DNA from: Alphaproteobacteria bacterium
Lineage (GTDB): Bacteria; Pseudomonadota; Alphaproteobacteria; Micropepsales; Micropepsaceae
Direction of reading: 5' to 3'
DNA length: 64,000 nucleotides
NCBI GenBank assembly: GCA_021325375.1
Contig: JAJPHG010000033.1
Coordinates: forward strand, 230 to 64,229
A model generated the notes under the pieces. That model did not search any database, was not told where the DNA came from, and saw only the letters and a program-made list of their open reading frames with translations. Position numbers and translations under genes: made by a program. This document shows, piece by piece, positions 3,389-20,254 of the stretch. Within the stretch, counting starts at the first letter, position 1. Each line of letters begins with the position of its first letter.

Positions 3389-5281
3389 ATGAAATCCGTC
3401 TTGTTCGGAGCGCTCGCAGCGCTCCTGGTTGCCAGCATGCCCGCTTGCGCCGCCGCTCCGGCCGCCGACGCCGGCGATGCCGCCAACCCGGCCTATATGT
3501 GGGATTTGAGCGATCTCTATCCCTCGCCCGAGGCCTGGACTGCGGCGCAGGCCAAGGTGAAAGCGCAGGTCGACGGGCTCGACAAGTACAAGGGCAGCTT
3601 GGCCGAGAGCGCGAAGGCGATGCTGACCGCGCTCGACGCGATCTCGATGGCCGGCAAAGAGGTCGCGCGCCTCAACGTCTATGCCTCGCTCAAGGGCGAC
3701 GAGGACGTGCGCGTCGCCGTCAATCAGGAGCGCGTGCAGCTCGGCCAGGCGCTGCAGGCGGAGTTCGGCGAGAAGACCGCCTGGGTCGCGCCCGAGGTGC
3801 TCGGCGTTGGCGCGAAGAAGGTCCACGCATTCGAGACGCAGTCACCGGAGCTCGCGCACCGCTTCGACTTCTATCTCGACAACATCCTGCGCGGCGCGCC
3901 GCACACGCTCTCGCCCGAGGCCGAGGGCGTGATGGCCTCGGCGCAGACCGTGCTCGTGCAGCCCAACAACATCTACAGCCAGCTCTCCAACGGCGAGCTG
4001 CCGTTCCCCGGCGTGACCCTGTCCGACGGCACCAAGGTCGAGCGCCTCGACCAGGCCGCATATTCGAAATACCGCCAGGCGCCGAACCGCGCCGACCGCA
4101 AGCTCGTCTTCGACACGTTCTGGGGCACGTGGAAGAAATACGAAGGCACGTTCGGCGCCTCGCTGAACACGCAGGTGCAGGCCGAGGAGTTCGACGCCAA
4201 GGTGCGCCACTATCCCAACGCCCTGTCCGATGCGCTCTTCGCCGACAACATGCCCGAGGCCGTCTATCGCCAGCTCGTGGCGCAGGCCAATTCCGGCCTG
4301 CCGGTGTTCCATCGTTACTTGAAGCTGCGCAAGAAGCTGCTCGGCATCAACGACGATCTCGCCTATTACGACATCTATCCGTCGATGTTCAAACTCGACA
4401 AGCCCGAGCACATCACCGTCGCCGACGCCGAGCGCATCGCCTTCGACGTGACCGCGCCTTACGGGCCGGAATACGCCGCCAAGCTCCATCAGGCGTTCTC
4501 GGGACGCTGGATGGACGTGCTTCCGCGCACCGGCAAGGCATCGGGCGCCTACATGAACGGCTCGGCCTATGACGTGCATCCCTATCTGCACCTCAACCAC
4601 AATTACGATTACGAGTCGCTGTCGACCTTCGTGCACGAATGGGGGCACGGCATCCACACGCTGCTGGACGACGAGACGCAGCCCTGGGAGAAGTCGAACT
4701 ACTCGACCTTCATCGCCGAGACCGCGTCGATCTCCAACGAGATGCTGCTCAACGACTACATGGTCGCGCACGCCAAGACCAAGGACGAGAAGCTCTTCTA
4801 CCTCGGCCACGGGCTCGAGCTGATCCGCGGCACGTTCTTCCGCCAGACCATGTTCGGCGAGTTCCAGCTCGCCATCCACGAGGAGGTCGAGAAGGGCAAC
4901 GCGCTGTCGGGCAAGCGCATGAGCGAGATCTATTGCGATCTTCTCAAGCGCTATCACGGCGACGCGCAGGGCGTGATGAAGATCGATCCCGCCTATTGCG
5001 TCGAGTGGGCGTTCATCCCGCACTTCTATTACGGCTTCTATGTCTGGCAATACGCGACCTCGATGGCGGGCGCGGCCGAGTTCACCGACGCGATCGAGCA
5101 TGAGGGCGCGCCCGCGCGCGACCGCTACATCGCCATGCTCAAGGCCGGCGGCTCGGACTATGCGTATTCGCTCTACAAGAAGGCCGGCATCGACATGGCC
5201 GCGCCGGCGCCCTACCAGGCGCTCGTCGCGCGGATGAGCCGCATCCTCGATCAGATCGACGCGCTGGAGGCGCAGAAATAG
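3389..5281 (+). CDS. pepF: Oligoendopeptidase F (M3B) with N-terminal signal peptide
   Basis: Start MKSVLFGALAALLVAS; HEWGH zinc motif; GAYM..HPY, FIAETAS, HFYYGFYVWQYAT and LKAGGSDY motifs. Confidence 0.9.
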   Translation: MKSVLFGALAALLVASMPACAAAPAADAGDAANPAYMWDLSDLYPSPEAWTAAQAKVKAQVDGLDKYKGSLAESAKAMLTALDAISMAGKEVARLNVYASLKGDEDVRVAVNQERVQLGQALQAEFGEKTAWVAPEVLGVGAKKVHAFETQSPELAHRFDFYLDNILRGAPHTLSPEAEGVMASAQTVLVQPNNIYSQLSNGELPFPGVTLSDGTKVERLDQAAYSKYRQAPNRADRKLVFDTFWGTWKKYEGTFGASLNTQVQAEEFDAKVRHYPNALSDALFADNMPEAVYRQLVAQANSGLPVFHRYLKLRKKLLGINDDLAYYDIYPSMFKLDKPEHITVADAERIAFDVTAPYGPEYAAKLHQAFSGRWMDVLPRTGKASGAYMNGSAYDVHPYLHLNHNYDYESLSTFVHEWGHGIHTLLDDETQPWEKSNYSTFIAETASISNEMLLNDYMVAHAKTKDEKLFYLGHGLELIRGTFFRQTMFGEFQLAIHEEVEKGNALSGKRMSEIYCDLLKRYHGDAQGVMKIDPAYCVEWAFIPHFYYGFYVWQYATSMAGAAEFTDAIEHEGAPARDRYIAMLKAGGSDYAYSLYKKAGIDMAAPAPYQALVARMSRILDQIDALEAQK

Positions 5282-5291
5282 CTCGCCGCGG

Positions 5292-5840
5292 CTAAGCCGC
5301 TTTCAGCGTCTGCACCTTCGCCCTCAGGCGGAACGCCGCGATCAGCATCGCGACGCCGAAGACGAGCGCATAGGCGCCGATCCACCAGGTCAGCACCAGC
5401 GCGCCGATCATCGGGGCCGCGACGAGCATCAGGCCGTAGACCGTCGACGCCAGCCCGCCGAGCACGAGCCACCAGCGCCCGTGATCGGTGTCGATCTTGA
5501 AAGCGACCGCCAGCATGCAGATGCCGGTGACGATCGCCCATACGGCCAGCAGCCAGACGAAGAAGACGACGGTGATGCCGGGCATCGCCACCGCCACGGC
5601 GCCCGCGGCGATATCCACCACGCCTTCGAGCGCGAGCCAGCCCCAGCGTTCATGGGCTTTGGCGGCGCGCACAGCGCTCACGATGGCAAAGACGCCGTCC
5701 GCGACCGCATAGGCCGCGAAGACCAGCACCAGCGACAGCATCGTGACGCCGGGCTCAAAGAGTGCGATCAATCCGAACACGACCGCGAGAACGCCGCGTA
5801 TGACGAACGCCCACCAGTTCTGAATGAGAACGGAAATCAT
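5292..5840 (-). CDS. hdeD: HdeD/DUF308 family acid-resistance membrane protein
   Basis: Start MISVLIQNWWAFVIRG; repeated hydrophobic DUF308-type hairpins. Confidence 0.85.
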   Translation of the reverse strand: MISVLIQNWWAFVIRGVLAVVFGLIALFEPGVTMLSLVLVFAAYAVADGVFAIVSAVRAAKAHERWGWLALEGVVDIAAGAVAVAMPGITVVFFVWLLAVWAIVTGICMLAVAFKIDTDHGRWWLVLGGLASTVYGLMLVAAPMIGALVLTWWIGAYALVFGVAMLIAAFRLRAKVQTLKAA

Positions 5841-5853
5841 TGCCGGCCTCCCA

Positions 5854-5879
5854 TGCGATTGGCGGGAGAGCATAGTTCC
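5854..5879 (-). promoter_or_regulatory. Possible EcfG (sigmaT)-type promoter for hdeD
   Basis: Minus strand GGAAC(5879-5875)-N17-CGCA; the -10 element is imperfect relative to CGTT. Confidence 0.4.
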
Positions 5880-5991
5880 CCGCCCGGGCGCTGAAAAGCT
5901 GGAGAGGATGCTTCCTTGGTATCGTCCCGAAAGGCGTTCCCGTTCAGTGGCTGTCGCGTTATGCTCCGGGTACGGCAAGGAGCGCCCGTAA

Positions 5992-6644: not shown

Positions 6645-7352
6645 TCAGCGGATCTCCCAGGTGATCGACACGTTCGCGGTGACGCTCTGCTCGCCGGCGG
6701 CGACGGGCGTCTGCGCGTTGGCCTTGAGCATGCTCATGGGACGGCCGACGGGCTCGATCGTCGTCTCGCCGCCGCCTTCGCTGATCGCGGTGATGGGACC
6801 CAGCGTGACGCCGGCGGCGCGCGCATAAGCCTCAGCGCGGTCGAAAGCGTCCTTCACCGCCTCCTCGCGCGCCTTGGCGAGCAGGGGCTTGGGATCGGCG
6901 ATGGAGAAGGTCGGGCCTTCGATCTGGTTGCTGCCCGCCGCGACCAGGGCGTCGATCGTGGCGCCGAGCTTGTCGAGCCCGTCGACGATGACGGTCACGG
7001 TGTTGGAGACCTCATAGCCCACGATGCGCTGCGTCACGCCCGGCTTCTCGGCCGAATATTGCGGGCTGACCTGGAAGTTCGAGGTCTGGATGTTCTTCTC
7101 CGCGACGCCGGCGCGTTTGAGCGCGTCGAAGACGGCGTTCATGGCGCGCGCGTTCGCGGCGAGCGCGGCCGCGGCGGAGGGCGCGCGCGTGACGACGCCG
7201 GTGGAGAGCTGCGCGCGGTCCGGCGCATCCCTGACCTCGCCCAGGCCGTTGACGCTGATGAGGCGCGGGGCGGCTGCGTTGTCGGCCCAGGCCGCGGGCG
7301 CCGCTGCCGCCAGACACAGCGACAGAGCCAGTGCGATGCGCGATATCGTCAC
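6645..7352 (-). CDS. SIMPL (DUF541) domain periplasmic protein
   Basis: GTG start with AGAAGGA RBS; signal peptide; ISVNGLGEVRDAPDRA, GSNQIEG and AREEAVKDA motifs. Confidence 0.9.
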   Translation of the reverse strand: MTISRIALALSLCLAAAAPAAWADNAAAPRLISVNGLGEVRDAPDRAQLSTGVVTRAPSAAAALAANARAMNAVFDALKRAGVAEKNIQTSNFQVSPQYSAEKPGVTQRIVGYEVSNTVTVIVDGLDKLGATIDALVAAGSNQIEGPTFSIADPKPLLAKAREEAVKDAFDRAEAYARAAGVTLGPITAISEGGGETTIEPVGRPMSMLKANAQTPVAAGEQSVTANVSITWEIR

Positions 7353-7466
7353 AATGCGGTCCTTCTTTACGGAAATCGCGCTATCCTTCGCCCGCGACAA
7401 GGCAAAACTGGGGCGGCGAGGGCAGCTATATTCAGACCCGCGCCGAATACTGCTAAGGAGGGCCTG

Positions 7467-7543
7467 GGGCCTGTAGCTCAGTTGGTTAGAGCTGACCGCT
7501 CATAACGGTCTGGTCGCAGGTTCGAGTCCTGCCGGGCCCACCA
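7467..7543 (+). tRNA. tRNA with CAT anticodon, most likely tRNA-Ile2 (lysidine type)
   Basis: 77-nt cloverleaf GGGCCTGTAGCTCAGTTGGTTAGAGC...CTCATAA...GGTTCGAGTCC...GGGCCCACCA; the G1-C72 pair excludes initiator Met; the GGGCCTG acceptor stem resembles alphaproteobacterial Ile2. Confidence 0.92.
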
Positions 7544-7711
7544 GTGTTTCGGTATGTTGGCGCAAACGCCGGAAGCAATTTCGGGGAGGCGGTCTTGAGT
7601 GATCGCCATACGCGAAAATAGCCTAACAGAATCAGCGGATTCGCAACCCTGCCGGGACGCACGGTAGGAATGCGCCATGTACGATATTGGAACGCTGTCC
7701 CTCTGCACGGC

Positions 7712-7753
7712 AAAGGCGCGCGCTGCAGCCTCCTGATGGTGCGCGCCTTTTTT
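7712..7753 (+). terminator. Rho-independent terminator-like hairpin downstream of the tRNA
   Basis: AAAGGCGCGC...GCGCGCCTTT perfect 10-bp stem followed by a T run; long loop. Confidence 0.5.
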
Positions 7754-7802
7754 CAATTCGCGGGTTGTTCCCGGGGCCGGAGCGACCTCAGAGCATCGGA
7801 AC

Positions 7803-8048
7803 CTACCGTCGCTCCGCAGCGTAACCCGTCATCTGCGCGCGCCACCGGCCGAGCGCCACGACTGCCCAGATCCCTTCGACAATTCCGAACGGCCACGCGC
7901 CCTGGAGGAAGCCGTACACCGATCCAAGCGCGCACGCGGCGGCGAAGCCGAGCACGAACCACGGGCTTCTTCGTTCGAACGCGTAGCACAGCAACATCGC
8001 GGTGACCGCGAAGAGGCCAAAGAGAGACAATGCATCCACGTCAGGCAT
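7803..8048 (-). CDS. Small hydrophobic membrane protein (about 80 aa, 3 TM)
   Basis: DALSLFGLFAVTAMLLCYAFERRSPWF...GFLQGAWPFG is a fully hydrophobic, protein-like sequence; start at 8048 (ATG) or 8039 (GTG). Confidence 0.75.
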   Translation of the reverse strand: MPDVDALSLFGLFAVTAMLLCYAFERRSPWFVLGFAAACALGSVYGFLQGAWPFGIVEGIWAVVALGRWRAQMTGYAAERR

Positions 8049-8144
8049 CCGACAGCTTCTGCGGATAACAAAATCATTCCCGAACGCCGTCAACAAGACG
8101 CGCGCAACCATGGGCTCGCGCTCTTCCTTGCGGCTTTTCCGGCC

Positions 8145-8191
8145 ATGGGAGCTTTATGCCCAAGCCATGCATTCCGCATGGATTTTTTACG
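8145..8191 (+). promoter_or_regulatory. Tandem 14-bp motif pair (33-nt period), site 1
   Basis: ATGGGAGCTTTATG (8145) and ATGGATTTTTTACG (8178); the second copy starts 85 nt upstream of ATG 8263. Confidence 0.65.
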
Positions 8192-8262
8192 CCTGTCGAC
8201 CCTATCACTCGTCACCTCGATAGCCGCGGTTCGTCGGCGCCAGCGGGTAGGGACGCAGTGCA

Positions 8263-8517
8263 ATGGCTGAGGTTTTCAGGTTCCAAGACCTATTTGACGA
8301 CCGTCAAGTTAATTCGCGTCGGCCAACACGGGAGCGGGTGACGCATGATGACGAGATGGACGACTACTGGCCTGATGTATCGAGCCGCTACACACTTGAG
8401 TGTCCGCAAACCCTGAAGCGGGTCTCGCTGCGAAGCGTCTTGTTCGAAACGTTTCTGGTATTCGCGGGCTCGGGCGCTCTTGTTCTGGCGGTATGGTTGT
8501 TTGTCCCACAGCCCTAG
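8263..8517 (+). CDS. Small C-terminally anchored membrane protein, paralogue A
   Basis: MAEVFRFQD...YWPDVS...VLFETFLVFAGSGALVL aligns with the ORF at 10108. Confidence 0.75.
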   Translation: MAEVFRFQDLFDDRQVNSRRPTRERVTHDDEMDDYWPDVSSRYTLECPQTLKRVSLRSVLFETFLVFAGSGALVLAVWLFVPQP

Positions 8518-8577
8518 CTTTGCACGGTCCTGCGTTTTTGAATTCAGAGCAGCCAGCGCGTCCACAAGCCGGCACCG

Positions 8578-8624
8578 CATAAGAATTCCATTGGGATGTA
8601 CGATCGAGAAAATAAGGTTTCCTG
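8578..8624 (-). promoter_or_regulatory. Tandem 14-bp motif pair (33-nt period), site 2 (no obvious downstream ORF)
   Basis: Minus strand CAGGAAACCTTATT (8624-8611) and ATGGAATTCTTATG (8591-8578). Confidence 0.6.
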
Positions 8625-8670
8625 CAGGGTCCGCTCTCGTGACCGAAGCAACTTCGTCCGGCGCGCCGCT

Positions 8671-9153
8671 TCAACCTGTCCGCTTGAAGGCGCTGTCGCC
8701 GAACGCCGCGAACAGGGATCGCGGATCGCCGCCCGCACGGAGCTGATCGCGCACGTTGTGATCGCGCAGCGCGCGGGAAGCGGACACGAGGATCTCCAAA
8801 TAGGTTTCGCTCGCCGGCTCAGGACCTAGAAACAGGAGCACGAGGTCGACCTGCCTGCCGTCCAAAGCGTGGTAGTCGATCGGCCGCTGGAGGCGCGAGA
8901 ACAATGCAAACGGCCTGCGAAGCGCCTTGAACCGTATGCACGGCATCGCTACGCCCATTCCCAAACCCGTCGACGCGACGGCCTCTCTGTCGAGAAGCGC
9001 GCGAAGTATTTTCATGTGATCGATATCGACGAACGGCATTGCAAAGGCGGCCAGCTCGACAAGCAGTTGCGGCTTGCTCGTAGCGCACGAATTCACCACG
9101 GCCATGTACGGCGACGTCAAACAGCCGGCCCTTGCTGGCGCCCGAATTCTCAT
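8671..9153 (-). CDS. ptsN: PTS EIIA-Ntr (PtsN) paralogue with Cys at the phospho-His position; start uncertain (9153 ATG or 9120 TTG)
   Basis: ATSKPQLLVELA, LDREAVASTGLGMGVAMPC, RPIDYHALDGRQVDLVLLFLGP and RALRD match PTS_EIIA_2/PtsN. Confidence 0.85.
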   Translation of the reverse strand: MRIRAPARAGCLTSPYMAVVNSCATSKPQLLVELAAFAMPFVDIDHMKILRALLDREAVASTGLGMGVAMPCIRFKALRRPFALFSRLQRPIDYHALDGRQVDLVLLFLGPEPASETYLEILVSASRALRDHNVRDQLRAGGDPRSLFAAFGDSAFKRTG

Positions 9154-9204
9154 GATCGGCTCGCGCGCGGAATCCTCATCCCAAAGTCTGAATAGGCTTT
9201 GCCG

Positions 9205-9251
9205 CATAAAAATTCGATAGGAATCCGAATCGAAAAAAATAAGCGCCCGGG
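9205..9251 (-). promoter_or_regulatory. Tandem 14-bp motif pair (33-nt period), site 3, upstream of ptsN
   Basis: Minus strand CCCGGGCGCTTATT (9251-9238) and ATCGAATTTTTATG (9218-9205). Confidence 0.6.
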
Positions 9252-9275
9252 ATGGTCATGGAGCGCCGCAGATTT

Positions 9276-9322
9276 GCGGCGTCTTTATTTTTGACACGAT
9301 GAACCCGCATGGAATTTTTACG
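9276..9322 (+). promoter_or_regulatory. Tandem 14-bp motif pair (33-nt period), site 4
   Basis: GCGGCGTCTTTATT (9276) and ATGGAATTTTTACG (9309); the second copy starts 76 nt upstream of ATG 9385. Confidence 0.65.
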
Positions 9323-9384
9323 GCCCGTTTGTGTATGCCCCACATCCACGCGGCAATCAGTGTCGCATCACAGGAGAAATCAAA

Positions 9385-9885
9385 ATGTGGAAAAATGCTG
9401 GGGCTGCACTGGTGCTGGCAGCGGGGGTTGCATGCTTGGCGAGTCCGGCGCTCGCGCTGAACGCCTGGGTGAGCAAGATCGACAAGAACGCCGACGGCAG
9501 CGCGACCTATCACTTCACCATTCAGACCGATCCGGGCGAGAGCCTGGCGCCGGGCACCGACTTCGTGACCGTCTACAATCTGGCAGGCCTTGCCGCCGGC
9601 TCGGTGAAGTCGCCGGCCGGATGGAGCGCCTCGTCCGAGGAGTTCGGCAAGACGCCGACGATGAACGGATATCCGATGGTCAATCCGGTGGATATCCCGG
9701 CGCTGAACAACGTCACATGGTCGCCGACCAAGGCGGTCGGCGGCGGCGTGAAGCTGGAAGGTTTCTCGATCACCACCAGCGTGGGCGGGACGACGCAGGG
9801 CGAATACACGGCCTCCGTCACGCGCGGCAAGTCCAAGCAGGCAGTGATCGGCACCATTGAGACACCGGCTTTCTGGCCTCACTGA
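9385..9885 (+). CDS. Secreted beta-rich protein of unknown function
   Basis: AGGAG RBS; signal peptide MWKNAGAALVLAAGVACLASPALA; Gly/Thr/Ser-rich mature part. Confidence 0.8.
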   Translation: MWKNAGAALVLAAGVACLASPALALNAWVSKIDKNADGSATYHFTIQTDPGESLAPGTDFVTVYNLAGLAAGSVKSPAGWSASSEEFGKTPTMNGYPMVNPVDIPALNNVTWSPTKAVGGGVKLEGFSITTSVGGTTQGEYTASVTRGKSKQAVIGTIETPAFWPH

Positions 9886-9915
9886 GGCGGACACGGCCGT
9901 TCACGAATAGGAGAG

Positions 9916-9949
9916 CGCGCGCGACCCAAAGGCGGGTTGCGCGCGTTTT
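9916..9949 (+). terminator. Rho-independent terminator after the secreted-protein gene
   Basis: CGCGCGCGACCC/GGGTTGCGCGCG 12-bp stem (one G:U) followed by TTTT. Confidence 0.65.
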
Positions 9950-9988
9950 CACGTTGCGCGCGGCGACGGGATATTTCCCGCTTTTCCT

Positions 9989-10035
9989 ATGGAATTCTTA
10001 TGCGCGATATCGAAATTCCATATGGAATTCTTATG
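9989..10035 (+). promoter_or_regulatory. Tandem 14-bp motif pair (33-nt period), site 5, two perfect copies; probable promoter of the small ORF-barrel-kdp operon
   Basis: ATGGAATTCTTATG at 9989 and at 10022; a perfect 16-bp palindrome AATTCCATATGGAATT at 10014-10029; 86 nt upstream of ATG 10108. Confidence 0.75.
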
Positions 10036-10107
10036 GCCGTTTTCTCTAGAACCGCCGCGTGGCGAGGGCCGGATCGCAATCCCGGCGGACGCCATTCAGG
10101 TGACGTC

Positions 10108-10374
10108 ATGGCGGAAATTTTCAAGTTCGAAGACGTGGTTGGCGGCCGCAGCGGAGCTCGGCGAAACGGGGCGGCGAGGCGCATCCAGCAGGATGGGAAC
10201 GATTCCTACAGCTTCTGGCCGGAAGTTTCGTGCGGCGCCTGGTCGATAAATCCCGCGCAAGCGGATCCGAGGAATTCTCCGCAGCGCGTCCTGTCGGAAA
10301 TGATGCTGATCGTCGCAGGCGCGGGGTTCTTGGTCCTGCTGGCCACGATATTCCTCGCGGCGCCGTCTTCCTGA
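10108..10374 (+). CDS. Small C-terminally anchored membrane protein, paralogue B
   Basis: MAEIFKFED...FWPEVS...VLSEMMLIVAGAGFLVL aligns with the ORF at 8263. Confidence 0.75.
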   Translation: MAEIFKFEDVVGGRSGARRNGAARRIQQDGNDSYSFWPEVSCGAWSINPAQADPRNSPQRVLSEMMLIVAGAGFLVLLATIFLAAPSS

Positions 10375-10479
10375 ATGCGCGGCGGCTTGCGCGCCGATCG
10401 TTCCAATTCAAGCAGGAAATCACAAGACCCGGATGAAATGTCTCCGGTCAATTGAGCAGTTCGAAAAGAGGGATCCCGA

Positions 10480-12165
10480 ATGAGCATCGTTGGAATCGAG
10501 CGGCAACGCCGTGCCATCAGGTCGGGGCTGAGCGCGGCAGGCATCGGCCTGTGCGTCTCGCTCGCCGCGACAAGCGCGCTCGCGCAGACGCCGGACGCCA
10601 AGCCTGCGCAACCCGGCTGCGATACGTCCGCCGGCGTTCCCGATCCCTACAAGAATTACGCCTGCTACGAACAATATCTGGGCAAGGACGTGTTCGGGCG
10701 CTTCCTCAAATACTACAGCCTCGAGATGGGGCAGGCCTCGGCGCCCAGCGACCCGAACGCGCCGTCCACCCACCGCGACGGCTGGCCGGCGACGCCGCAG
10801 AGCACGCCACCGATGCCGTTCACCGAATGGCCCTATGGCGCGGCGACGTCGCTCGGCGTGAGCACGCCCAACGCCGTCGACAGTCCCCTGATGGTTTCCA
10901 TCGCCGATACCTCGCTCGGCCAGGCGCTGCAGGACGACCATGTGCAGGTCTATGGCTGGGTCAATGGCGGCTTCAATGTGAGCTCGAATTCGCGCCAGCC
11001 CGGCGGCAACGCGCCGATGGCGTATTTCTACACGCCCAACACGGCGGAGCTCGACCAGGTCGTGCTCTATGCGGAGCGCGTGCCGGACACGGTGCAGACC
11101 GATCACATCGATTGGGGCTTCCGCGTCTCGGCATTGTACGGCGAGAACTACCGCTACACGACGGCCTACGGAATCGACAGCTACCAGTTGCTCAAGCACA
11201 ATCTGGTCAACGGCTACGATTTCCCGATGATGTACGCCGAGGTCTATATCCCGCAGGTCGCTGAAGGCCTGCTGATCCGGGTCGGACGCTATATCTCGAT
11301 CCCCGACATCGAGGCCCAGCTCGCGCCGAACAACTACATGTACTCGCACTCGATGATGTACAGCTTCGACAACTACACCAATGAAGGCGTCGTCGCTTCG
11401 CTCGCGATCCGCAAGAACCTCATCCTGCAGCTCGGCATCGTCGACGGCACCGAGACCGCGATCTGGAATTCGGGCGAGAAGCTGAAGAACCTGGATCCCA
11501 ACCCGCTGTTCCCGAACGCGACCTTCGCCAAGGATCCGGGGAACCAGCCTTCGCTCGTCGCCTGCCTGCGCTACACCTGGAACAACGGCGACGACACGAT
11601 CTATCCCTGCGCCGACGGCATCAACAGCGGCACATGGGGCTACAACAATCTGCAATGGTACGGCTTCACCTATTATCACAAGTTCAACGACCAATGGCAC
11701 CTGTCGTTCGAGACCTACGATCTCTTCCAGAAGAACGTCGCGAACGAGAACAATCCGATCGCCGCGGCGGCGGTCGCCAATGGCGGCACGCCGTTCTCGC
11801 CGCAATACATCCCGTTCAACGCGCCGGACGAGGCGCAGTGCGCTCCGCAGCGCTTGACCTGCACGGCGATGGCGACGGGCGCCGTCGCGTATCTGAACTA
11901 CAAGTTCTCGCCGCTGGACAACATCTCGTTCCGTCCCGAGTTCTATGACGACATGCAGGGACAGCGCACCGGTGTCGCGACGAGCTACGCCAATTTCGGC
12001 ATCGGCTGGCAGCATTGGCTTTCGCCGCAGATCGAGTTCCGTCCCGAAGTCGATTTCGACTATTCGCTCGACAGGGACGCCTTCAACGGCGACTCGCTCA
12101 AGGGCATAGCGCCCGACAAGAGATACACGCTGGTCGGAGCCATGGACGTCATCGTCCACTTCTGA
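10480..12165 (+). CDS. Outer-membrane beta-barrel protein (BBP2/DUF1597 porin-like) upstream of kdp
   Basis: Signal peptide; VYGWVNGG, DWGFRVSALYG, VGRYISIPDIE and FRPEFYDD motifs; alternating beta-strand C-terminus ending in Phe (DVIVHF). Confidence 0.8.
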   Translation: MSIVGIERQRRAIRSGLSAAGIGLCVSLAATSALAQTPDAKPAQPGCDTSAGVPDPYKNYACYEQYLGKDVFGRFLKYYSLEMGQASAPSDPNAPSTHRDGWPATPQSTPPMPFTEWPYGAATSLGVSTPNAVDSPLMVSIADTSLGQALQDDHVQVYGWVNGGFNVSSNSRQPGGNAPMAYFYTPNTAELDQVVLYAERVPDTVQTDHIDWGFRVSALYGENYRYTTAYGIDSYQLLKHNLVNGYDFPMMYAEVYIPQVAEGLLIRVGRYISIPDIEAQLAPNNYMYSHSMMYSFDNYTNEGVVASLAIRKNLILQLGIVDGTETAIWNSGEKLKNLDPNPLFPNATFAKDPGNQPSLVACLRYTWNNGDDTIYPCADGINSGTWGYNNLQWYGFTYYHKFNDQWHLSFETYDLFQKNVANENNPIAAAAVANGGTPFSPQYIPFNAPDEAQCAPQRLTCTAMATGAVAYLNYKFSPLDNISFRPEFYDDMQGQRTGVATSYANFGIGWQHWLSPQIEFRPEVDFDYSLDRDAFNGDSLKGIAPDKRYTLVGAMDVIVHF

Positions 12166-12181
12166 CCGAGGAGAACGGCCG

Positions 12182-12265
12182 ATGCTCGACTTCATCCTGA
12201 TCGCCGCGGGGTTCGGCTTCTTCGTCGTCGCGATCGCCTACCAATACGTCTGCGACAGACTTTAG
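12182..12265 (+). CDS. 27-aa hydrophobic peptide preceding kdpF
   Basis: GAGGAG RBS; MLDFILIAAGFGFFVVAIAYQYVCDRL; a single TM helix ending in C-x-R-L. Confidence 0.75.
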   Translation: MLDFILIAAGFGFFVVAIAYQYVCDRL

Positions 12266-12276
12266 AGGAACGACCG

Positions 12277-12366
12277 ATGGTCATCGACTACGTACTTGGA
12301 GCGCTCGTCACCGTGGGCATCCTCTTCTATCTCGTGTTCGCCCTGATCCGCCCCGAGCGGTTTTGA
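12277..12366 (+). CDS. kdpF: K+-transporting ATPase subunit F
   Basis: AGAGGA RBS; MVIDYVLGALVTVGILFYLVFALIRPERF with the diagnostic YL..AL..PERF. Confidence 0.92.
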   Translation: MVIDYVLGALVTVGILFYLVFALIRPERF

Positions 12367-12378
12367 GGAAGGCTGGTC

Positions 12379-14106
12379 ATGACATTCAACGGCTGGATTC
12401 AGATCGCGCTGTATTTCGGGCTGCTGCTCCTGACCGTGAAGCCGCTCGGCCGCTACATGACCGACGTGTTCGAGGGCAAACGCACGTTCTTTTCCTTCCT
12501 CTTGCGCCCGATCGAGCGCGTCATCTACGCGGTCTGCGGCGTGAACGAGACGGAGGAGCAGCACTGGATCGTCTACGGCGTGGCGATGCTGCTCTTCAGC
12601 CTTGCGGGCTTCGTGTCGCTCTATGCGCTGATGCGCCTTCAGGCGACGCTGCCCTACAATCCGCAGCATTTCCCCGCCGTGAGCGAGCATCTTTCGTTCA
12701 ACACGGCGATGAGCTTCATCTCGAACACCAACTGGCAATCCTACGTCCCCGAAACGACGATGAGCTATCTGGTCCAGATGGCCGGGCTCACGGTTCACAA
12801 TTTCCTCTCGGCGGCGACCGGCATCGCGCTCGCCGTCGCGCTCATCCGCGGCTTCGCGCGGCGCTCCGCCCAGACGGTCGGCAATTTCTGGGTCGATCTG
12901 ACGCGCTGCGCGCTCTACATCCTGCTGCCGCTCTCGATCGTGGTCGGCCTGTTCTTCGTCTGGCAGGGGATGCCGCAGAACCTGAGCGCCTATGTGGACG
13001 CCACGACGCTGGAAGGCGGCAAGCAGACCATCGCCTTGGGCCCCGTCGCCTCGCAGGAGGTGATCAAGATGCTGGGCACGAATGGCGGCGGTTTCTTCAA
13101 CGCGAATTCGGCGCATCCGTTCGAGAATCCCAACGCGATCACCAATCTGGTGCAGATCCTGCTGATCTTCTCGCTCGGCGCGGCGCTGACGAACGTCTTC
13201 GGCCGCATGGTCGGCGACCAGCGCCAGGGCTGGGCGATCTTCGCGGTGATGTCGGTGCTGTTCCTGGCCGGAACGACCGTCGTCTACTGGGCGGAGGCGC
13301 CCGGCAATCCGGCCTTCGCCTCCATGCATGTCGACCAGTCGGTCACCGCCTGGCAGCCGGGCGGCAACATGGAAGGCAAGGAGGTGCGCTTCGGCATCGC
13401 CAACTCGGCGCTGTTCTCGACGATCACCACCGATGCGTCCTGCGGCGCCGTCAACACCATGCATGACAGCCTGACGCCCCTCGGCGGCATGATCCCGATG
13501 ATCAACATCCAGCTGGGCGAGATCATCTTCGGCGGCGTCGGCTCCGGCATGTACGGCATGCTGCTCTTCGCGATCGTCGCCGTGTTCGTCGCCGGGCTCA
13601 TGGTCGGGCGGACGCCGGAATATCTGGGCAAGAAGATCGAAGCGCGCGAGGTCAAGATGGCGATGCTGGCCATCCTCATCCTGCCGCTCTCGATCCTGGG
13701 CTTCAGCGCGATTGCGACGGTGCTGCCGGCAGGCCTTGCCGGGCCGGCGAATGCGGGACCGCACGGCTACAGCGAAATCCTCTACGCCTACACCTCGGCC
13801 ACCGGCAACAACGGCAGCGCGTTCGCGGGCATCAGCGCCAACACGATGTTCTACAACGTGACGATCGGTTTTGCGATGCTGATCGGCCGCTTCCTGATGA
13901 TCGTGCCGATGCTGGCGGTCGCGGGCTCCCTCGCCGAGAAGAAGATCCTGGCGCCGTCGGCGGGCACCTTTCCCACCGACGGCGCGCTGTTCGTCGGTCT
14001 CGTCATCGGCGTGATCCTGATCGTCGGCGGTCTCACCTATTTCCCCGCGCTCGCGCTCGGTCCCATCGTCGAGCATTTCGCGATGCTGGCCCACAATCTC
14101 TATTGA
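12379..14106 (+). CDS. kdpA: K+-transporting ATPase subunit A
   Basis: [28 protein letters not shown] and GNNGSAFAG selectivity-filter motifs. Confidence 0.98.
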
Positions 14107-14118
14107 GGTTCGAACATC

Positions 14119-16206
14119 GTGGACACAACCATCCAGAAGCCCGCAGGCGCCGAGAAAGCCCGCAAGCGCACGCAAGCCGCCACGATGACCGATCCGGCCA
14201 TCGTTTTTCCGGCCATCGGCGACGCCTTCAGGAAGCTCGATCCGCGTCACATGGCGGGCAATCCCGTGATGTTCGTGGTGGAGATCGTGGCGACGCTGAC
14301 CACGGTTCTATTCGTTCGCGATCTCGTCATGGGCGGTGTGGGGTTGGGCTTTTCGCTCCAGATCAACATCTGGCTCTGGTTCACGGTGCTCTTTGCCAAC
14401 TTCGCCGAGGCCGTCGCCGAGGGACGCGGCAAGGCGCAGGCGGACTCACTGCGCCAGACCAGAACCGACACGATGGCGAGGCTCCTCGATGACGCGGCCG
14501 GGACGAGCTGGCACTTCGTCGAGGCAACCGCGCTCAAGCAAGGCGACATCGTGCTGGTGGAGGCGGGCGACATCATCCCCAGCGACGGCGAGGTGATCGA
14601 GGGCGTGGCCTCCGTCAACGAGGCCGCGATCACCGGCGAATCCGCGCCGGTCATCCGCGAATCCGGCGGCGACCGCTCGGCGGTGACCGGCGGCACGCAG
14701 GTCATCTCCGATTGGATCAAGGTCAGGATCACCGCGGCGCAAGGCCATACCTTCCTGGACCGCATGATCGCGCTGGTCGAGGGCGCCGAGCGCCAGAAGA
14801 CGCCCAACGAGATCGCGCTCAACATCCTGCTCGCGGGCATGACGATCATCTTCGTCTTTGCCGTGGCTTCGATCCCGAGCTTTGCGGCCTATGCGGGCGG
14901 CCATATCAGCGTGCTGGTGCTGGTCGCGCTGTTCGTGACGCTGATCCCGACCACAATCGGCGCGCTTTTGAGCGCCATCGGCATTGCCGGCATGGACCGG
15001 CTTGTGCGGTTCAACGTGCTTGCGATGTCCGGCCGCGCGGTGGAAGCGGCGGGCGACGTCGACACGCTGCTGCTCGACAAGACCGGCACCATCACGCTGG
15101 GCAACCGCCAGGCGACGGAGTTCGTTGCGCTGCCCGGCGTCGGGGAGCACGACCTCGCCGACGCCGCGCAACTTGCCTCGCTCTCCGACGAGACGCCGGA
15201 AGGCCGCTCCATCGTCGTCCTTGCCAAGGAGAAATACGGCATCCGCGGCCGCGACATGGCGCCGCTCAATGCGCAGTTCATCCCCTTCTCCGCCCAGACC
15301 CGCATCAGCGGCGTCGATATCGAAGGCTCCTCGATCCGCAAAGGCGCGGTGGACGCCGTGCTCGGCTGGTGCGGAGCGGCAGGTACGGACGAGGCGGCGC
15401 GCCTCACGACGCTCTCCGACCGCATCGCAAAGACCGGCGGCACGCCGCTCGCCGTGGCGAAGGACCGCAAGCTGCTCGGCGTCATCCACCTGAAGGACAT
15501 CGTCAAGGGCGGCATCCGCGAGCGGTTCGCGGAATTGCGCAAAATGGGCATCCGCACGGTGATGATCACCGGCGACAACCCGCTGACCGCGGCAGCCATC
15601 GCGGCGGAATCCGGCGTCGACGACTTCCTGGCGCAGGCGACGCCAGAGACCAAGCTCAAGCTCATCCGCGACGAGCAGGCGCTCGGCAAGCTGGTGGCGA
15701 TGTGCGGCGACGGCACCAACGATGCCCCCGCGCTCGCCCAGGCCGACGTCGGCGTCGCGATGAACACCGGGACCATGGCGGCGCGCGAGGCCGGCAACAT
15801 GGTGGACCTCGACAGCGACCCCACCAAGCTCATCGAGATCGTGGAGATCGGCAAGCAGCTCCTGATGACGCGAGGTGCGCTGACGACGTTCTCCATCGCC
15901 AACGATGTCGCAAAATACTTCGCCATCATCCCGGCGATGTTTGTCGCCTTCTACCCCCAGCTCCAGGCCCTGAACGTCATGGGGCTGCGTTCGCCGCAAA
16001 GCGCGATCCTCTCGGCGATCATCTTCAACGCGCTCATCATCATCGCGCTGATCCCGCTCGCCTTGCGGGGCGTGACCTATAAGCCGGTCGGCGCCGCGAG
16101 CATTCTGCGCCGCAATCTTTTGATCTATGGCCTGGGCGGCATCGCGGTCCCGTTCGTCGGCATCAAGCTGGTGGACATGATCGTCAACGCCGTCGGGCTC
16201 GTGTGA
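14119..16206 (+). CDS. kdpB: K+-transporting P-type ATPase subunit B
   Basis: DKTGT phosphorylation site, TGES, TGDN and [10 protein letters not shown] motifs. Confidence 0.98.
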
Positions 16207-16216
16207 GGAAGCGACG

Positions 16217-16792
16217 ATGCTCAAGCAAATCAGGCCCGCCATTTTCATGATCGTCGTCATGACGATCCTCACCGGCCTTGCCTATCCGCTGGGGATGACG
16301 GGCATCGCGCAGTTGCTGTTTCCCCATCAGGCGAACGGCAGCCTGATCGAGAAGAACGGCAAGGTGATCGGCTCCGAGCTCATCGGCCAGTCCTTCGCGA
16401 GCGCCAAGTATTTCCACGGCCGCCCCTCGGCGGCAGGCAACGGCTACGACGCGGCCAACTCTTCCGGCTCCAATCTCGGGCCGACCTCGAAGGCGCTGAT
16501 CAAGCGCGTGAGCGGTGATGCGGCCAAGCTGCACGCGGAGAATCCGAGCCAGCCGGTTCCCGTCGATCTGGTGACCACCTCTGCCAGCGGCCTCGATCCC
16601 GACATCACGCCGGCCGCCGCCTATTTCCAGGTGCCGCGCGTGGCGAAGGCGCGCGGGCTCCCGGAAGGCGCCGTGCGCGGATTGGTGGATGCGCATGTGG
16701 AGGGCCGGGTCCTCGGTGTCATCGGCGAGGCGCATGTGAATGTCCTGAAGCTCAATCTCGCGCTCGACGCCATGCAAGCCGGTCATGGCTGA
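16217..16792 (+). CDS. kdpC: K+-transporting ATPase subunit C
   Basis: [25 protein letters not shown] and [14 protein letters not shown] motifs. Confidence 0.98.
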
Positions 16793-16806
16793 GGCAGTTC
16801 AGCCGA

Positions 16807-19512
16807 ATGGCGATGACCGTTGCTGACGATCGCCCCTCGCCCGAGGCGCTTCTTGCCCAGGCGAAAAAAGAAGGTCGCGGCAAGCTCAAGATATTTCTCG
16901 GCGCCGCGCCCGGCGTCGGCAAGACGTTCGAGATGCTGTCCCAGGCGCGCCAGCGCCGGCTCGAAGGCGTCGATGTCGTCATCGGCGTCGTCGAGACCCA
17001 CGGACGCATCGAAACCGATGCTCTGACGAAGGGCTTCGAGTCCATCCCGAAAAAGCGCTCGCTTTACAAGGGGCGCGTGGTCTCCGAGATGGACCTTGAC
17101 GCCGTTCTTCAGCGCCGGCCGGGACTCGCATTGATCGACGAACTGGCGCACACCAACGCGCAAGGCGCCCGCCATCCCAAGCGTTATCTCGATGTCCAGG
17201 AGATGCTCGCGGCGGGAATCGACGTCTACACGACCGTCAACATCCAGCACATCGAGAGCCTGAACGACGTCGTGGCCCAGATCACGCGCATCCGCGTGCG
17301 CGAAACCGTGCCCGACGAAATCCTGGACGAAGCGGACGAGATCGAGTTGGTCGATACGACCGCCGACGATCTCCTGCAGCGCCTGCGCGAGGGCAAAGTC
17401 TATGTGAAGGCGCAGGCCGAACGCGCTCTGAAGCATTTCTTCTCGCCCGGCAACCTCACCGCCTTGCGCGAGCTCGCGCTGCGCCGGACGGCTCAGCGCG
17501 TCGACCGCGATATGACGGGCTATCTGCGGGCGCATGCGATCGGCGGTCCCTGGCCGGCCGGCGAACGCATCCTGGTGTGCCTAAACGAGCACCCGTCCTG
17601 CGCGGAATTGGTACGCCGGGCTCGAAGGCTGGCCGACAGCTTCAAAGCCACCTGGACCGCGGTCTATGTCGAAGGCTCCAGGCATCTGGCGCTGAGCGAA
17701 ATCGAAAAGGACCGCATTTCCGATACGATGCGCCTGGCGAAACGTCTTGGAGCCGAAGCCGTCACGATCCCGGGACGCGACATCGCGCCGGCCATCCTGG
17801 AATTCGCCCGCAAGAACAACGTCACGCAGATCCTCATCGGAAAGTCCGCGCGCTCGCGCTGGTTCGAGATGCTCCACGGCTCGGTCGTTCGGGACCTCAT
17901 GCGCGAAAGCGGAGCCATAAGCATCATCGCCGTGATGGCGGAGGGCGATGCCGTCGGCCCGAAATCCGTCGCGACCGCGCGCAGGCCCGAAGGCGTGGCA
18001 TGGCGGAACTACGCCTGGAGCGCATTGGCGGTCGCCGTCACGGTGGGCGTGGCCTGGCTGGTCAATGCCGTCATGGCGCACGCGCTTGGCAGCGTGGGGA
18101 TGCTGTTTCTCGTGCCTGTTCTGCTGAGCGCGATCTGGTTCGGCCTCAGACCGGCGCTGCTGACGTCGTTCGTCAGCGTGATGGCTTACAATTTCTTTTT
18201 CCTGCCGCCGCTCTACACGTTCACGATCGCGGACCCCAACAATTGGCTGTCCTTCGCGGTGCTTCTTCTTGTGGCGATCACCGCCGCGAATCTGGCGTCG
18301 CGCGTCCGAGACCAGGCCAATCTGGCGGCCCTGCGCGCCTCGATCGCGGGGCAGCTCTACCAATTCACCGGCAAGCTCGCGGCCATCGCGCGCCTCGACG
18401 ACATTCTTTGGGCTGCGGCCTTCCAGATCGCTTCGATGCTGAAATCCAACGTCGTGATCCTCCTGCCCGACCCCGGTACCAAGCGGCTTGAGATCCGCAG
18501 CGGCTATCCGCCGGAGGACGAGCTCGACGCTCAAGACTTGGCTGCGGCGGCGTGGTGCTGGGAGAAGGGCACCGCAACCGGCCGCAACGCGGAAACGCTC
18601 CCGGGTGCCAAGCGTCTCTTTCTTCCGATGCGGACGGGGCAGGGGCTGGTGGGCGTGATCGGCCTTTTGAGCCAGGACGGGCGGGGGCTGCTTTCGCCCG
18701 ACGAAAGGCGCCTGCTCGATTCGCTTCTCGACCAGACCGCGCTCGCGATCGAGCGCTCGCAACTCGTCGAACGCGTGGACGAGGCCCAGGTCCGTGCGGA
18801 AGCCGACAAGCTGCGCGTCGCGATGCTGAGCTCCCTCTCGCACGACCTGCGCACGCCGCTCGCGACGATCCTCGGCGCATCCACGTCGCTGCTGTCCGGC
18901 GCCGGATTGTATGACGCGCAGCAAACCGCCGACCTGCTTTCGACCGTCCGGGAAGAAGCCGAGCGGATGGACCGTTTCATCGGCAACCTGCTCGACATGT
19001 CGCGCCTCGAAGCGGGCGTGCTCGGCGTCAAGCCGGAGGTCGTCCAGGTGCAGGAATTGGTGGCGTCCGCGATCAAGCGCCTGTTGCGCCGGCTCTCGGA
19101 GCATCGGGTCGACGTGGCGCTGCCCGAGAATCTGCCTTTGGTGTCGGTCGACCCGCTGCTCCTGGAACAGGCGTTGGTCAACCTGCTCGACAACGCCGCG
19201 AAATACGCGCCGTCCTCCTCCGTCATCCGCGTTCGCGGGGCCGCGGAGAAGTCGCGCGTGATCCTCATGATCGAGGACGAGGGATCCGGCATCCCGGCGG
19301 ACGACCTGCCGCACATCTTCGACAAGTTCTATCGCGCCAAGGCCGCCGATCGGAGAATCGCCGGAACGGGTCTTGGCTTGGTCGTGGCCCGCGGCTTCGT
19401 GGAAGCCTTCGGCGGCACGCTCGACGCGGCGAACAGGCCGGGCGGCGCAGGGGCTGTGCTGACGGTTTCCCTGCCAAGGGCGACGGCATTGGGGGGCGGC
19501 GATGGCGACTAG
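16807..19512 (+). CDS. kdpD: Sensor histidine kinase KdpD
   Basis: GKLKIFLGAAPGVGKT, USP domain, 4 TM, GAF, SHDLRTPL H-box, GTGLGL. Confidence 0.98.
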   Translation: MAMTVADDRPSPEALLAQAKKEGRGKLKIFLGAAPGVGKTFEMLSQARQRRLEGVDVVIGVVETHGRIETDALTKGFESIPKKRSLYKGRVVSEMDLDAVLQRRPGLALIDELAHTNAQGARHPKRYLDVQEMLAAGIDVYTTVNIQHIESLNDVVAQITRIRVRETVPDEILDEADEIELVDTTADDLLQRLREGKVYVKAQAERALKHFFSPGNLTALRELALRRTAQRVDRDMTGYLRAHAIGGPWPAGERILVCLNEHPSCAELVRRARRLADSFKATWTAVYVEGSRHLALSEIEKDRISDTMRLAKRLGAEAVTIPGRDIAPAILEFARKNNVTQILIGKSARSRWFEMLHGSVVRDLMRESGAISIIAVMAEGDAVGPKSVATARRPEGVAWRNYAWSALAVAVTVGVAWLVNAVMAHALGSVGMLFLVPVLLSAIWFGLRPALLTSFVSVMAYNFFFLPPLYTFTIADPNNWLSFAVLLLVAITAANLASRVRDQANLAALRASIAGQLYQFTGKLAAIARLDDILWAAAFQIASMLKSNVVILLPDPGTKRLEIRSGYPPEDELDAQDLAAAAWCWEKGTATGRNAETLPGAKRLFLPMRTGQGLVGVIGLLSQDGRGLLSPDERRLLDSLLDQTALAIERSQLVERVDEAQVRAEADKLRVAMLSSLSHDLRTPLATILGASTSLLSGAGLYDAQQTADLLSTVREEAERMDRFIGNLLDMSRLEAGVLGVKPEVVQVQELVASAIKRLLRRLSEHRVDVALPENLPLVSVDPLLLEQALVNLLDNAAKYAPSSSVIRVRGAAEKSRVILMIEDEGSGIPADDLPHIFDKFYRAKAADRRIAGTGLGLVVARGFVEAFGGTLDAANRPGGAGAVLTVSLPRATALGGGDGD

Positions 19513-20194
19513 CCTGCCCAAGATTCTTTTGGTCGATGACGAGCCGCAGATCCGCCGGTTCCTCCATCTCGGCTTGCGCCCCCACGGCTATGACTGCGTA
19601 GAAGCGGGAACCGCGACCGACGCGCTCAGGGTGTTCACGAAGGAACGGCCGGACGTGGTGATCCTCGACCTGGGCCTGCCCGACCGGGACGGTTTCACCG
19701 TGATCCAGCAGATCAGAAGCGCGGGGCTAACCCCGATCGTCGTGTTGTCGGCGCGCAGCGATATCGAAGGCAAGGTCAGGGCGTTGGAACTCGGCGCGGA
19801 TGACTATCTCACCAAGCCCTTCGACATGTCGGAACTCCTCGCCCGCCTGAAGGCGGCGCTGCGCCATGGCTTGCAGACGATCGGTGAAGCTCCGGTATTT
19901 CACACCGGCCGACTGACGGTCGACCTCGTCAAACGGCAAGTCTACCTCGGCGACGCCGAAGTGCGTCTGACGCCGAAGGAGTACAGTCTCCTGCGCTTCC
20001 TGGTCGGCAACGCGGGCAAGGTAGTCACGCATCAGCAATTGCTGAAGGAAGTGTGGGGGCCGGCCCATCTCGAAGACCTGCAGTATCTGCGCGTGCTGAT
20101 GCGGCAATTGCGCCATAAGCTGGAGCCGCAAGGTTCCCCCAATATTCTGGTGACCGAGCCCAGCATAGGTTATCGGCTGTTGCAGCTGCAGTAA
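19502..20194 (+). CDS. kdpE: Response regulator KdpE (OmpR family)
   Basis: Receiver domain (LVDDE, LDLGLPD, KPF) plus winged helix; overlaps the kdpD stop. Confidence 0.95.
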   Translation: MATSLPKILLVDDEPQIRRFLHLGLRPHGYDCVEAGTATDALRVFTKERPDVVILDLGLPDRDGFTVIQQIRSAGLTPIVVLSARSDIEGKVRALELGADDYLTKPFDMSELLARLKAALRHGLQTIGEAPVFHTGRLTVDLVKRQVYLGDAEVRLTPKEYSLLRFLVGNAGKVVTHQQLLKEVWGPAHLEDLQYLRVLMRQLRHKLEPQGSPNILVTEPSIGYRLLQLQ

Positions 20195-20207: not shown

Positions 20208-20254
20208 TATGGCGGTTTATTTTTCACAACTGAAATTTGAATGGGATTCTTATG
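20208..20254 (+). promoter_or_regulatory. Tandem 14-bp motif pair (33-nt period), site 6
   Basis: TATGGCGGTTTATT (20208) and ATGGGATTCTTATG (20241); the second copy starts 81 nt upstream of ATG 20322. Confidence 0.6.

Follow-up and report, generated by a model that had tools for sequence, protein, structure and literature searches.

The phosphorylation-site variant and its locus

The window analysed here is a stretch of 64,000 nucleotides (nt) of contig JAJPHG010000033.1, from an alphaproteobacterium of the family Micropepsaceae (assembly GCA_021325375.1), and it carries a complete kdpFABCDE locus for potassium uptake. A cluster comprising a small membrane protein gene, a BBP2 porin gene and kdpFABCDE runs from 10108 to 20194, and divergent from it lies the gene with which this report is concerned, a paralogue of ptsN whose product resembles enzyme IIA in the nitrogen-related phosphotransferase system (EIIA-Ntr, or PtsN, of PTS-Ntr) and has cysteine where PtsN has its phosphorylated histidine (Table 1). 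An earlier note on this DNA had singled out the gene for this substitution, and both translation and HMMER alignments bear the observation out: the frame at 8671-9153 on the reverse strand contains REAVASTGLGMGVAMPCIRF, in which the Cys is residue 72, encoded by TGC at 8940-8938. In the alignments, GVAMP-C of the paralogue pairs with GVAIP-H of the solved PtsN structures 3urr and 4gqx (Burkholderia) and 2a0j (Neisseria), such that the phospho-His column holds Cys72 and the active His does not lie elsewhere.

The product matches the Pfam family PTS_EIIA_2 (PF00359) at 62.2 bits, against a cut-off of 27. Its best NCBIfam model is TIGR01419 (PtsN), at 78.7 bits, under the equivalog cut-off of 138.7; other members of the subfamily described below score 85-96 bits. 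We built an AlphaFold2 model with 22 homologues as input (predicted local distance difference test score, pLDDT, 79), which superposes on the PtsN structures 3urr, 2a0j and 1a6j with template modelling (TM) scores of 0.79-0.84 and root-mean-square deviations (rmsd) of 1.7-2.4 Å (3urr: TM 0.84, rmsd 1.8 Å). The homologues P0002 and P0003, both 89% identical, have N-termini that agree with the start at 9153; a longer open reading frame (ORF) from an ATG at 9207 was rejected, as the homologues begin at the equivalent of 9153 and the ATG within the box of the L117 contig is followed by TGA. The paralogue is thus a protein of EIIA-Ntr fold with Cys72 in the phospho-His column. Like canonical PtsN (Escherichia coli; 1a6j, 3urr, 2a0j), it has the fold and the RE..STGxGxGxAxP motif, but it differs in having Cys for the phosphorylatable His (His73 in E. 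coli, His66 in Sinorhizobium fredii), no rpoN neighbour, a kdp-type promoter box, and a TIGR01419 score far below the 151.9 bits of the canonical copy in its own genome. As equivalog score, catalytic His and gene context all fail, we file it as PtsN-like and not as PtsN.

That canonical copy is one of two EIIA_2 genes in the assembly (4.77 Mb, 45 contigs). Located at C3:57093-57560, it bears the His motif GIAVPH, passes the TIGR01419 cut-off and stands directly downstream of rpoN and lptB. The lptB-rpoN-(hpf)-ptsN context therefore belongs to the copy on contig C3, whereas the window gene has small ORFs on one side and the kdp cluster on the other, in agreement with the earlier note, which had placed it outside the usual rpoN/hpf/ptsN setting. 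Genes of EI-Ntr type (contig C22) and of HPr/NPr type (C5) are also present. Because a His-bearing ptsN beside rpoN and lptB, together with EI-Ntr and NPr, exists elsewhere in the genome, the window gene is an additional paralogue and not a mutated ptsN. The same genome holds, in addition to EI-Ntr and NPr, a frame of 891 aa at C10:19605-20276 on the reverse strand with HPr and PEP-utiliser N-terminal domains, of the fused HPr-EI type. Across 301 genomes of the same GTDB family, the canonical copy stands alone in almost all, with extra copies in G000, G235, G244 and G038.

A PtsN-like clade with a labile phospho-site

A homologue search of 5.8 billion proteins recovered approximately 30 relatives of the paralogue, sharing 46-89% identity with it and derived nearly all from soil metagenomes. 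Clustering at 50% reduces this subfamily to two or three representatives, after which canonical PtsN sequences form a plateau. A maximum-likelihood tree recovers the subfamily as a supported clade (96/93), apart from canonical PtsN and from the paralogue lineage of G038, and the window protein is a member of it, sharing its invariant residues (such as Y118) and its MP-x-ARF/IRF site motif. Most relatives are known from short metagenome contigs, and some of the metagenome-assembled genomes (MAGs), such as G244, are long-read assemblies with frameshifts.

The phospho-site of this clade is labile. Among its 30 members the column holds His in 13, Gln in six, Cys in five, Asn in five and Ser in one; basal members carry His, and the site has changed at least seven times on the tree, with Asn twice, Cys twice, Gln and Ser among the outcomes. 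The two origins of Cys are independent, one in the window clade and the other in P0008/P0009. Within the window clade the residues form a series of single-base steps, sisters having Asn (AAT), then Ser, then Cys (TGC), and the TGC codon is also that of L117, L118 and the distant member L116. Outside the subfamily, His is missing in just 2 of about 150 cluster representatives (~99% retain it). Asp and Glu do not occur at the site in any of the 17 non-His members, although GAC is a single step from CAC, an absence that fits selection for an unphosphorylated-like state.

Judged from substitution patterns, the subfamily is under purifying selection. The ratio of nonsynonymous to synonymous substitution rates (dN/dS) is 0.20 for the paralogue against two 89%-identical contigs and 0.12-0.27 in other subfamily pairs, with synonymous divergence (dS) of up to 1.7, and 25 columns are invariant across the subfamily, Tyr118 among them. 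That the gene is a decaying duplicate, with Cys as neutral damage, might be argued from its rarity (about 4 of 300 family genomes) and from its score below the TIGR01419 cut-off. The frame is however intact, the dN/dS values are low over large dS, the 25 invariant columns persist, the PtsN fold is predicted with confidence and the TGC codon is retained in three contigs at dS 0.15-0.32; we regard decay, which the earlier note had named as the way its proposal might fail, as scarcely credible. Tyr118 pairs in the HMMER alignments with a His of solved PtsN structures. We had considered this replacement of the second active-site His as proof of lost catalysis and downgraded it, since some His-bearing PtsN-like representatives have Tyr there too.

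What the Cys does was left open in the earlier note between a protein that PTS-Ntr can no longer switch off and one modified on Cys, by phosphorylation or redox chemistry. The first of these is now favoured: plain loss of phosphorylation is the better reading because the phospho-site is labile throughout the subfamily (H/N/Q/S/C), most members stand behind a methyltransferase gene, and kdp genes are missing within 10 kb of several. Phospho-Cys is established chemistry of PTS EIIB domains, and Cys72 might in the same way be converted to a thiophosphate by NPr~P, the relay being kept and its chemistry changed. EI-Ntr and NPr are encoded in the genome, and Cys arose twice independently, a His codon having to change at two or more nucleotides each time; yet sisters carry Asn, Gln or Ser at the site, of which Asn and Gln cannot accept phosphate, and the series from AAT through Ser to TGC resembles a walk among neutral residues, which makes phospho-transfer to Cys72 very unlikely. 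Still less probable is that Cys72 is a redox or thiol-modification sensor gating partner binding. A surface active-site Cys in a regulatory protein, recurring in two clades, is what such a sensor would look like, but there is no second conserved Cys (P0002 and P0003 have no counterparts to the window protein's C11 and C23) and the same column holds Asn, Gln, Ser or His in relatives with the same contexts and boxes. Taken more broadly, the twofold origin of Cys could mean that it is not neutral and that Cys72 is a new switch, by S-phosphorylation from NPr~P or by reversible thiol oxidation, a proposition that we consider improbable. Were it true, KdpD control would have a second input, redox or thiophosphate, and the paralogue would be the first EIIA-type protein with a catalytic Cys.

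The promoter box shared with kdp

Upstream of the paralogue lies a sequence element that it shares with the kdp operon. We scanned with the consensus ATGGAATTNTTAYG, allowing at most one mismatch in the window and genome and at most two in kdp loci of the genus, and found seven matches within 12 kb of the window, where 0.02 are expected. The whole 4.77-Mb genome has 12 matches, and the seven in this 12-kb stretch include all four perfect copies. The claim that the paralogue and the kdp operon share an upstream motif thus held up, and the evidence for it is stronger than the earlier note knew, since the box recurs as a kdp promoter element across the genus and is built like the KdpE site of E. 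coli. In other species of the genus, 18 of 29 kdpA loci have a box within 1.5 kb upstream of kdpA, against a background of 0.009 per kb, and in 14 of those 18 it lies on the coding strand at -340 to -230, just upstream of kdpF. A pattern-based scan of genome contigs yielded mostly canonical ptsN and served as the negative control set: the box is present in 8/8 subfamily loci and in one of about 100 canonical ptsN loci. Of loci added later, L159 and L160 have it and L161 does not. The paralogue box is kept at the same place in L117 and L118. When box counts were compared between genomes with and without kdp at up to one mismatch, the matches were mostly background variants.

Aligned sites consist of a half-site ending in ATG (TTTATG when kdpF-proximal) and a second half-site yTTAyG, joined by a fixed GAATT spacer. 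Those that are not close to kdpF have, in addition, TTTAT 33 nt before the second half-site and, 9 nt downstream, a -10-like CCTAT; the paralogue box at 9205-9218 has its TTTAT element at this distance and a -10-like CCTATT at 9196-9191. Experiments have defined the E. coli KdpE site as a pair of 6-bp repeats on either side of a 5-bp spacer (PMC3264566). Read from MG1655, it is TTTATA-CTTTT-TTTACA, to be compared with TTTATG-GAATT-CTTATG here. Both are pairs of T-rich 6-bp direct repeats, 5 bp apart and upstream of kdpF, with TTTA(T/C)A in E. coli and (T/C)TTA(T/C)G here, and the paralogue box has the same layout as that upstream of kdpF. They differ in that the half-site here ends in G and not A, that the spacer is fixed as GAATT, and that many sites have TTTAT as a third element, in phase and 33 nt before the second half-site, and also overlap a -35-like element. 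With 196 bits against 4kny, the window KdpE is clearly orthologous to that of E. coli, and it retains equivalents of Y191, R193, R200 and T215. Since the 6+5+6 layout is that of the E. coli site, and since an orthologous KdpE with its DNA-contact residues kept is encoded in the window, the box is probably a KdpE box.

Alternatively, a different regulator, for instance an alternative sigma factor or a transcription factor that is unlinked, could use the box as its promoter or operator, in which case co-regulation with kdp would be kept though not through KdpE. This would accommodate the class-2 sites, which overlap a -35-like TGGAAT and have a -10-like CTAT 17 nt downstream, the loci far from kdp that carry the box too, and the KdpE motif reported for Caulobacter from chromatin immunoprecipitation, TCGAMRACGCSMKC, which is unlike the box. 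Nevertheless, the 6+5+6 direct repeat fits the experimentally defined E. coli site, the box lies upstream of kdpF/kdpA throughout the genus, and KdpE, with its DNA contacts intact, is the sole DNA-binding regulator encoded in the locus. Two specific promoter readings were rejected. For sigma-54, TGG-N8-TGC is one base short of TGGCAC-N5-TTGC and the TGC is not conserved; for EcfG, GGAAC-N16-17-CGTT does not fit. Control by a regulator other than KdpE is therefore unlikely, and, if true, would change only the regulatory step of the model set out below.

Table 1. Features of the kdp locus in the window (boxes found with at most one mismatch; +, forward strand; -, reverse strand)
Feature	Position	Strand	Remarks
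Box before small membrane protein A	8178-8191	+	
Small membrane protein A	8263-8517	+	84 aa; box upstream
Orphan perfect box downstream of the paralogue	8578-8591	-	exact end of homology with L117
EIIA-Ntr (PtsN)-like paralogue	8671-9153	-	160 aa; phospho-His replaced by Cys72; Pfam, NCBIfam, HMMER, AlphaFold2
TGC codon of Cys72	8938-8940	-	column of the phosphorylated PtsN His; translation and HMMER alignment
Paralogue box	9205-9218	-	ATCGAATTTTTATG; 52 nt upstream of ATG 9153
Box before secreted protein	9309-9322	+	
Secreted protein	9385-9885	+	166 aa; signal peptide MWKNAGAALVLAAGVACLASPALA; no Pfam match; divergent from paralogue
Two perfect boxes, 33 bp apart	9989-10002 and 10022-10035	+	kdp operon promoter region
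Small membrane protein B	10108-10374	+	88 aa; C-terminally anchored; first kdp operon gene
BBP2 (OmpL-like) beta-barrel porin	10480-12165	+	PF07642, 110 bits; ends 17 nt before KdpF-like ORF
Hydrophobic ORF	12182-12265	+	27 aa; MLDFILIAAGFGFFVVAIAYQYVCDRL; just upstream of kdpF
kdpF	12277-12366	+	
kdpA	12379-14106	+	
kdpB	14119-16206	+	
kdpC	16217-16792	+	
kdpD	16807-19512	+	KdpD-N, Usp, DUF4118, GAF, HisKA, HATPase domains
kdpE	19502-20194	+	OmpR-type
Box after kdpE	20241-20254	+	directly after kdpE; before YtkA-like lipoprotein
YtkA-like lipoprotein	20322-20705	+	127 aa; box upstream

Small membrane proteins A and B share 34% identity (E 3e-14), the pattern MAE[VI]F[RK]F...WP[DE]VS and a C-terminal transmembrane (TM) helix, have no Pfam family and are each preceded by a box; homologues are found upstream of kdpF in G127 and G255 and adjoining the paralogue in L118. 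In this last contig a 79%-identical homologue of the secreted 166-aa protein adjoins the paralogue as well. The insertion of the porin gene between the kdp boxes and kdpF suggests a porin induced under K+ limitation; a 62%-identical porin in G244 is divergent from the EIIA-like gene, with kdp not nearby. The hydrophobic 27-aa ORF may be a second KdpF-like peptide. As in the window, a box follows kdpE in G038.

A low-G+C stretch at 7600-12600 (0.56-0.62, against 0.65-0.69 in the flanks) contains the paralogue, the small ORFs and the porin, and is bordered by tRNA-Met at 7467-7543 on the forward strand, the sole Rfam match to known RNAs or riboswitches in 7000-13000. Together, the boxes at 8578(-) and 9989(+) make up an inverted pair of 19 nt with 95% complementarity, and homology with L117 breaks exactly at the former, whose counterpart there precedes a methyltransferase gene, kdpF and kdpA. 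This combination suggests that the window order arose by inversion of the paralogue and secreted-protein block between box copies, relative to L117.

Partners, proposed role and significance

Adjacency to kdp is recurrent in the subfamily and its surroundings, and is not universal. The L117 copy (89% identical, Cys) has downstream of it, in the same orientation, a box, a 188-aa methyltransferase gene, kdpF and kdpA. L160, a His-bearing member, has an operon of DPBB protein, methyltransferase, EIIA-like protein and small protein divergent from kdpF/kdpA, with back-to-back boxes between. The divergent position by kdp is taken in G038, of the same genus, by the other paralogue lineage (His), with the same architecture and the same box. 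Further afield, extra His-bearing EIIA_2 genes stand beside kdpABCDE or kdpD-like/kdpE genes in betaproteobacterial MAGs (L024, L051) and in Accumulibacter (L020, L025, L034), genomes that have 2-4 EIIA_2 genes each. As these are other lineages in which the phospho-His is retained, the linkage of EIIA paralogues to kdp has evolved more than once and is broader than this genus. An enrichment of the H-to-C change beside kdp, about which the earlier note had asked, is not supported in that form: one Cys clade (window and L117) is at kdp, the L116 contig is too short to tell, Asn and Gln members lie away from it, and the His-bearing L160 is at kdp.

A recurrent box-bearing module was observed in L113, L114, L116, L159, L160, L161 and L003, consisting of a DPBB_1 (RlpA-like) protein, an S-adenosylmethionine (SAM) methyltransferase, the EIIA-like protein and 2-TM proteins, sometimes with a second methyltransferase of 188 aa.

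The paralogue may serve a partner other than KdpD, as a K+-box-regulated subunit for the methyltransferase, the DPBB protein or the small membrane proteins, or acting on Trk-type uptake or a K+/H+ antiporter. Methyltransferase MT1 is encoded directly upstream, with stop and start overlapping or nearly so, in L003, L113, L114, L116, L159, L160 and L161, and in G176 (L158) it is divergent from kdp with the EIIA-like gene absent. In L160 the EIIA-like operon is followed, after about 1.2 kb, by a CPA-type Na_H_Exchanger gene (4715-5923), and unphosphorylated PtsN is reported to inhibit the K+/H+ antiporter YcgO in E. coli (PMC11808508). On the other side, the window genome has neither MT1 nor MT2 yet keeps the paralogue beside kdp under purifying selection, so the protein must work without these methyltransferases, and for alphaproteobacteria no target of PtsN besides KdpD is documented (PMC9239096, PMC3665714). 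We consider a different partner possible, though doubtful, and prefer KdpD.

The preference for KdpD draws on what is established for canonical PtsN, whose unphosphorylated form activates KdpD and regulates K+ homeostasis. This form binds KdpD and stimulates kdp expression in E. coli, Rhizobium leguminosarum and S. fredii. Of two variants of PtsN1 from S. fredii, H66A still binds KdpD and increases the transcription of kdp whether K+ is low or replete, and H66E loses binding (PMC9239096). PtsN1 and PtsN2 bind KdpD, through its GAF domain in S. fredii, and both aid growth at low K+ (PMC9239096, PMC3665714); in R. leguminosarum, mutating both ptsN1 and ptsN2 gives the phenotype of a kdpA mutant (PMC3665714). 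The window KdpD carries the GAF and HisKA domains that are used in other species (PMC9239096).

We therefore propose a working model whose later steps are inferred from these precedents. Under K+ limitation, KdpD and KdpE would become active and phosphorylated KdpE would bind the boxes and drive the kdp operon and the paralogue together. The paralogue, no longer phosphorylatable on His, would be fixed in a state like that of unphosphorylated PtsN and be regulated by its amount, not by its phosphorylation state. Most likely it would bind KdpD and enhance the kinase activity of that protein, giving positive feedback on kdp, and kdp induction would thereby be uncoupled from the nitrogen/carbon signal to which EI-Ntr and NPr subject canonical PtsN. 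The paralogue may in addition affect further potassium-homeostasis targets of the unphosphorylated form of PtsN. While the fold, the Cys, the extra copy, the purifying selection, the lability of the site and the shared box with its genus-wide position upstream of kdp are observed, KdpE binding to the box, binding of the paralogue to KdpD and the direction of the feedback would have to follow from them by analogy. For the model as a whole, a phosphorylation-independent PtsN mimic that is induced by K+ limitation and feeds back on KdpD, we put the probability at roughly 0.5.

Several observations weigh against it. The paralogue is rare, at about 4 in 300 family genomes, and kdp operons in some 70% of the genus function without it. 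His is retained in 13 of the 30 subfamily members, and for that reason some of them may still be phosphorylated. With regard to regulation, the upstream half-site of the paralogue box, CCTATC, is weaker than the kdpF-proximal TTTATG, and the Caulobacter KdpE motif is the dissimilar one given above. With regard to the target, four members have no kdp genes within 10 kb (G235 and G244, both Asn, in which kdp is on another contig, and L113 and L114, both Gln), and the commonest partner is a SAM methyltransferase of 290-350 aa encoded immediately upstream, with small 2-TM proteins downstream and often a DPBB protein; on these two grounds the direct target may not be KdpD.

Known systems approach the proposed arrangement without coinciding with it. 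Extra EIIA-Ntr copies are also found in the alphaproteobacterial Rhizobiaceae (PtsN2/PtsN3 of S. fredii CCBAU45436 and R. leguminosarum 3841), but His66 is present in all three S. fredii homologues (PMC9239096), neither KdpE-type control nor natural loss of the phospho-site is described for them in PMC9239096 or PMC3665714, and the present subfamily is a separate clade from uncultured soil alphaproteobacteria. The engineered PtsN1 H66A likewise has a neutral residue at the phospho-site, and the natural variants are all neutral (Cys, Asn, Gln, Ser) and never acidic; however, H66A and H66E are laboratory mutants of the canonical protein, whereas the change here is natural, recurrent and paired with a kdp box. 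Phrase searches of open-access literature, which are not proof of absence, found no published description of a natural EIIA-Ntr without the histidine or of a ptsN-type gene under a kdp-type box.

To our knowledge, all outputs of PTS-Ntr have been attributed to the phosphorylation state of one PtsN histidine. Here, a natural lineage has dropped this histidine yet remains under selection, and the paralogue carries the promoter box of KdpDE/KdpFABC, the very system that unphosphorylated PtsN activates. If the model is true, the paralogue would be the natural counterpart of the laboratory H-to-A mutants and the EIIA analogue of a pseudo-receiver, controlled by the amount made instead of by phosphotransfer. 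It offers a directly testable case of positive feedback combined with signal uncoupling in potassium homeostasis, and the box itself points to a candidate compact KdpE regulon in a large uncultured soil genus, comprising a porin, small membrane proteins, a secreted protein, methyltransferases and a PtsN-like protein.

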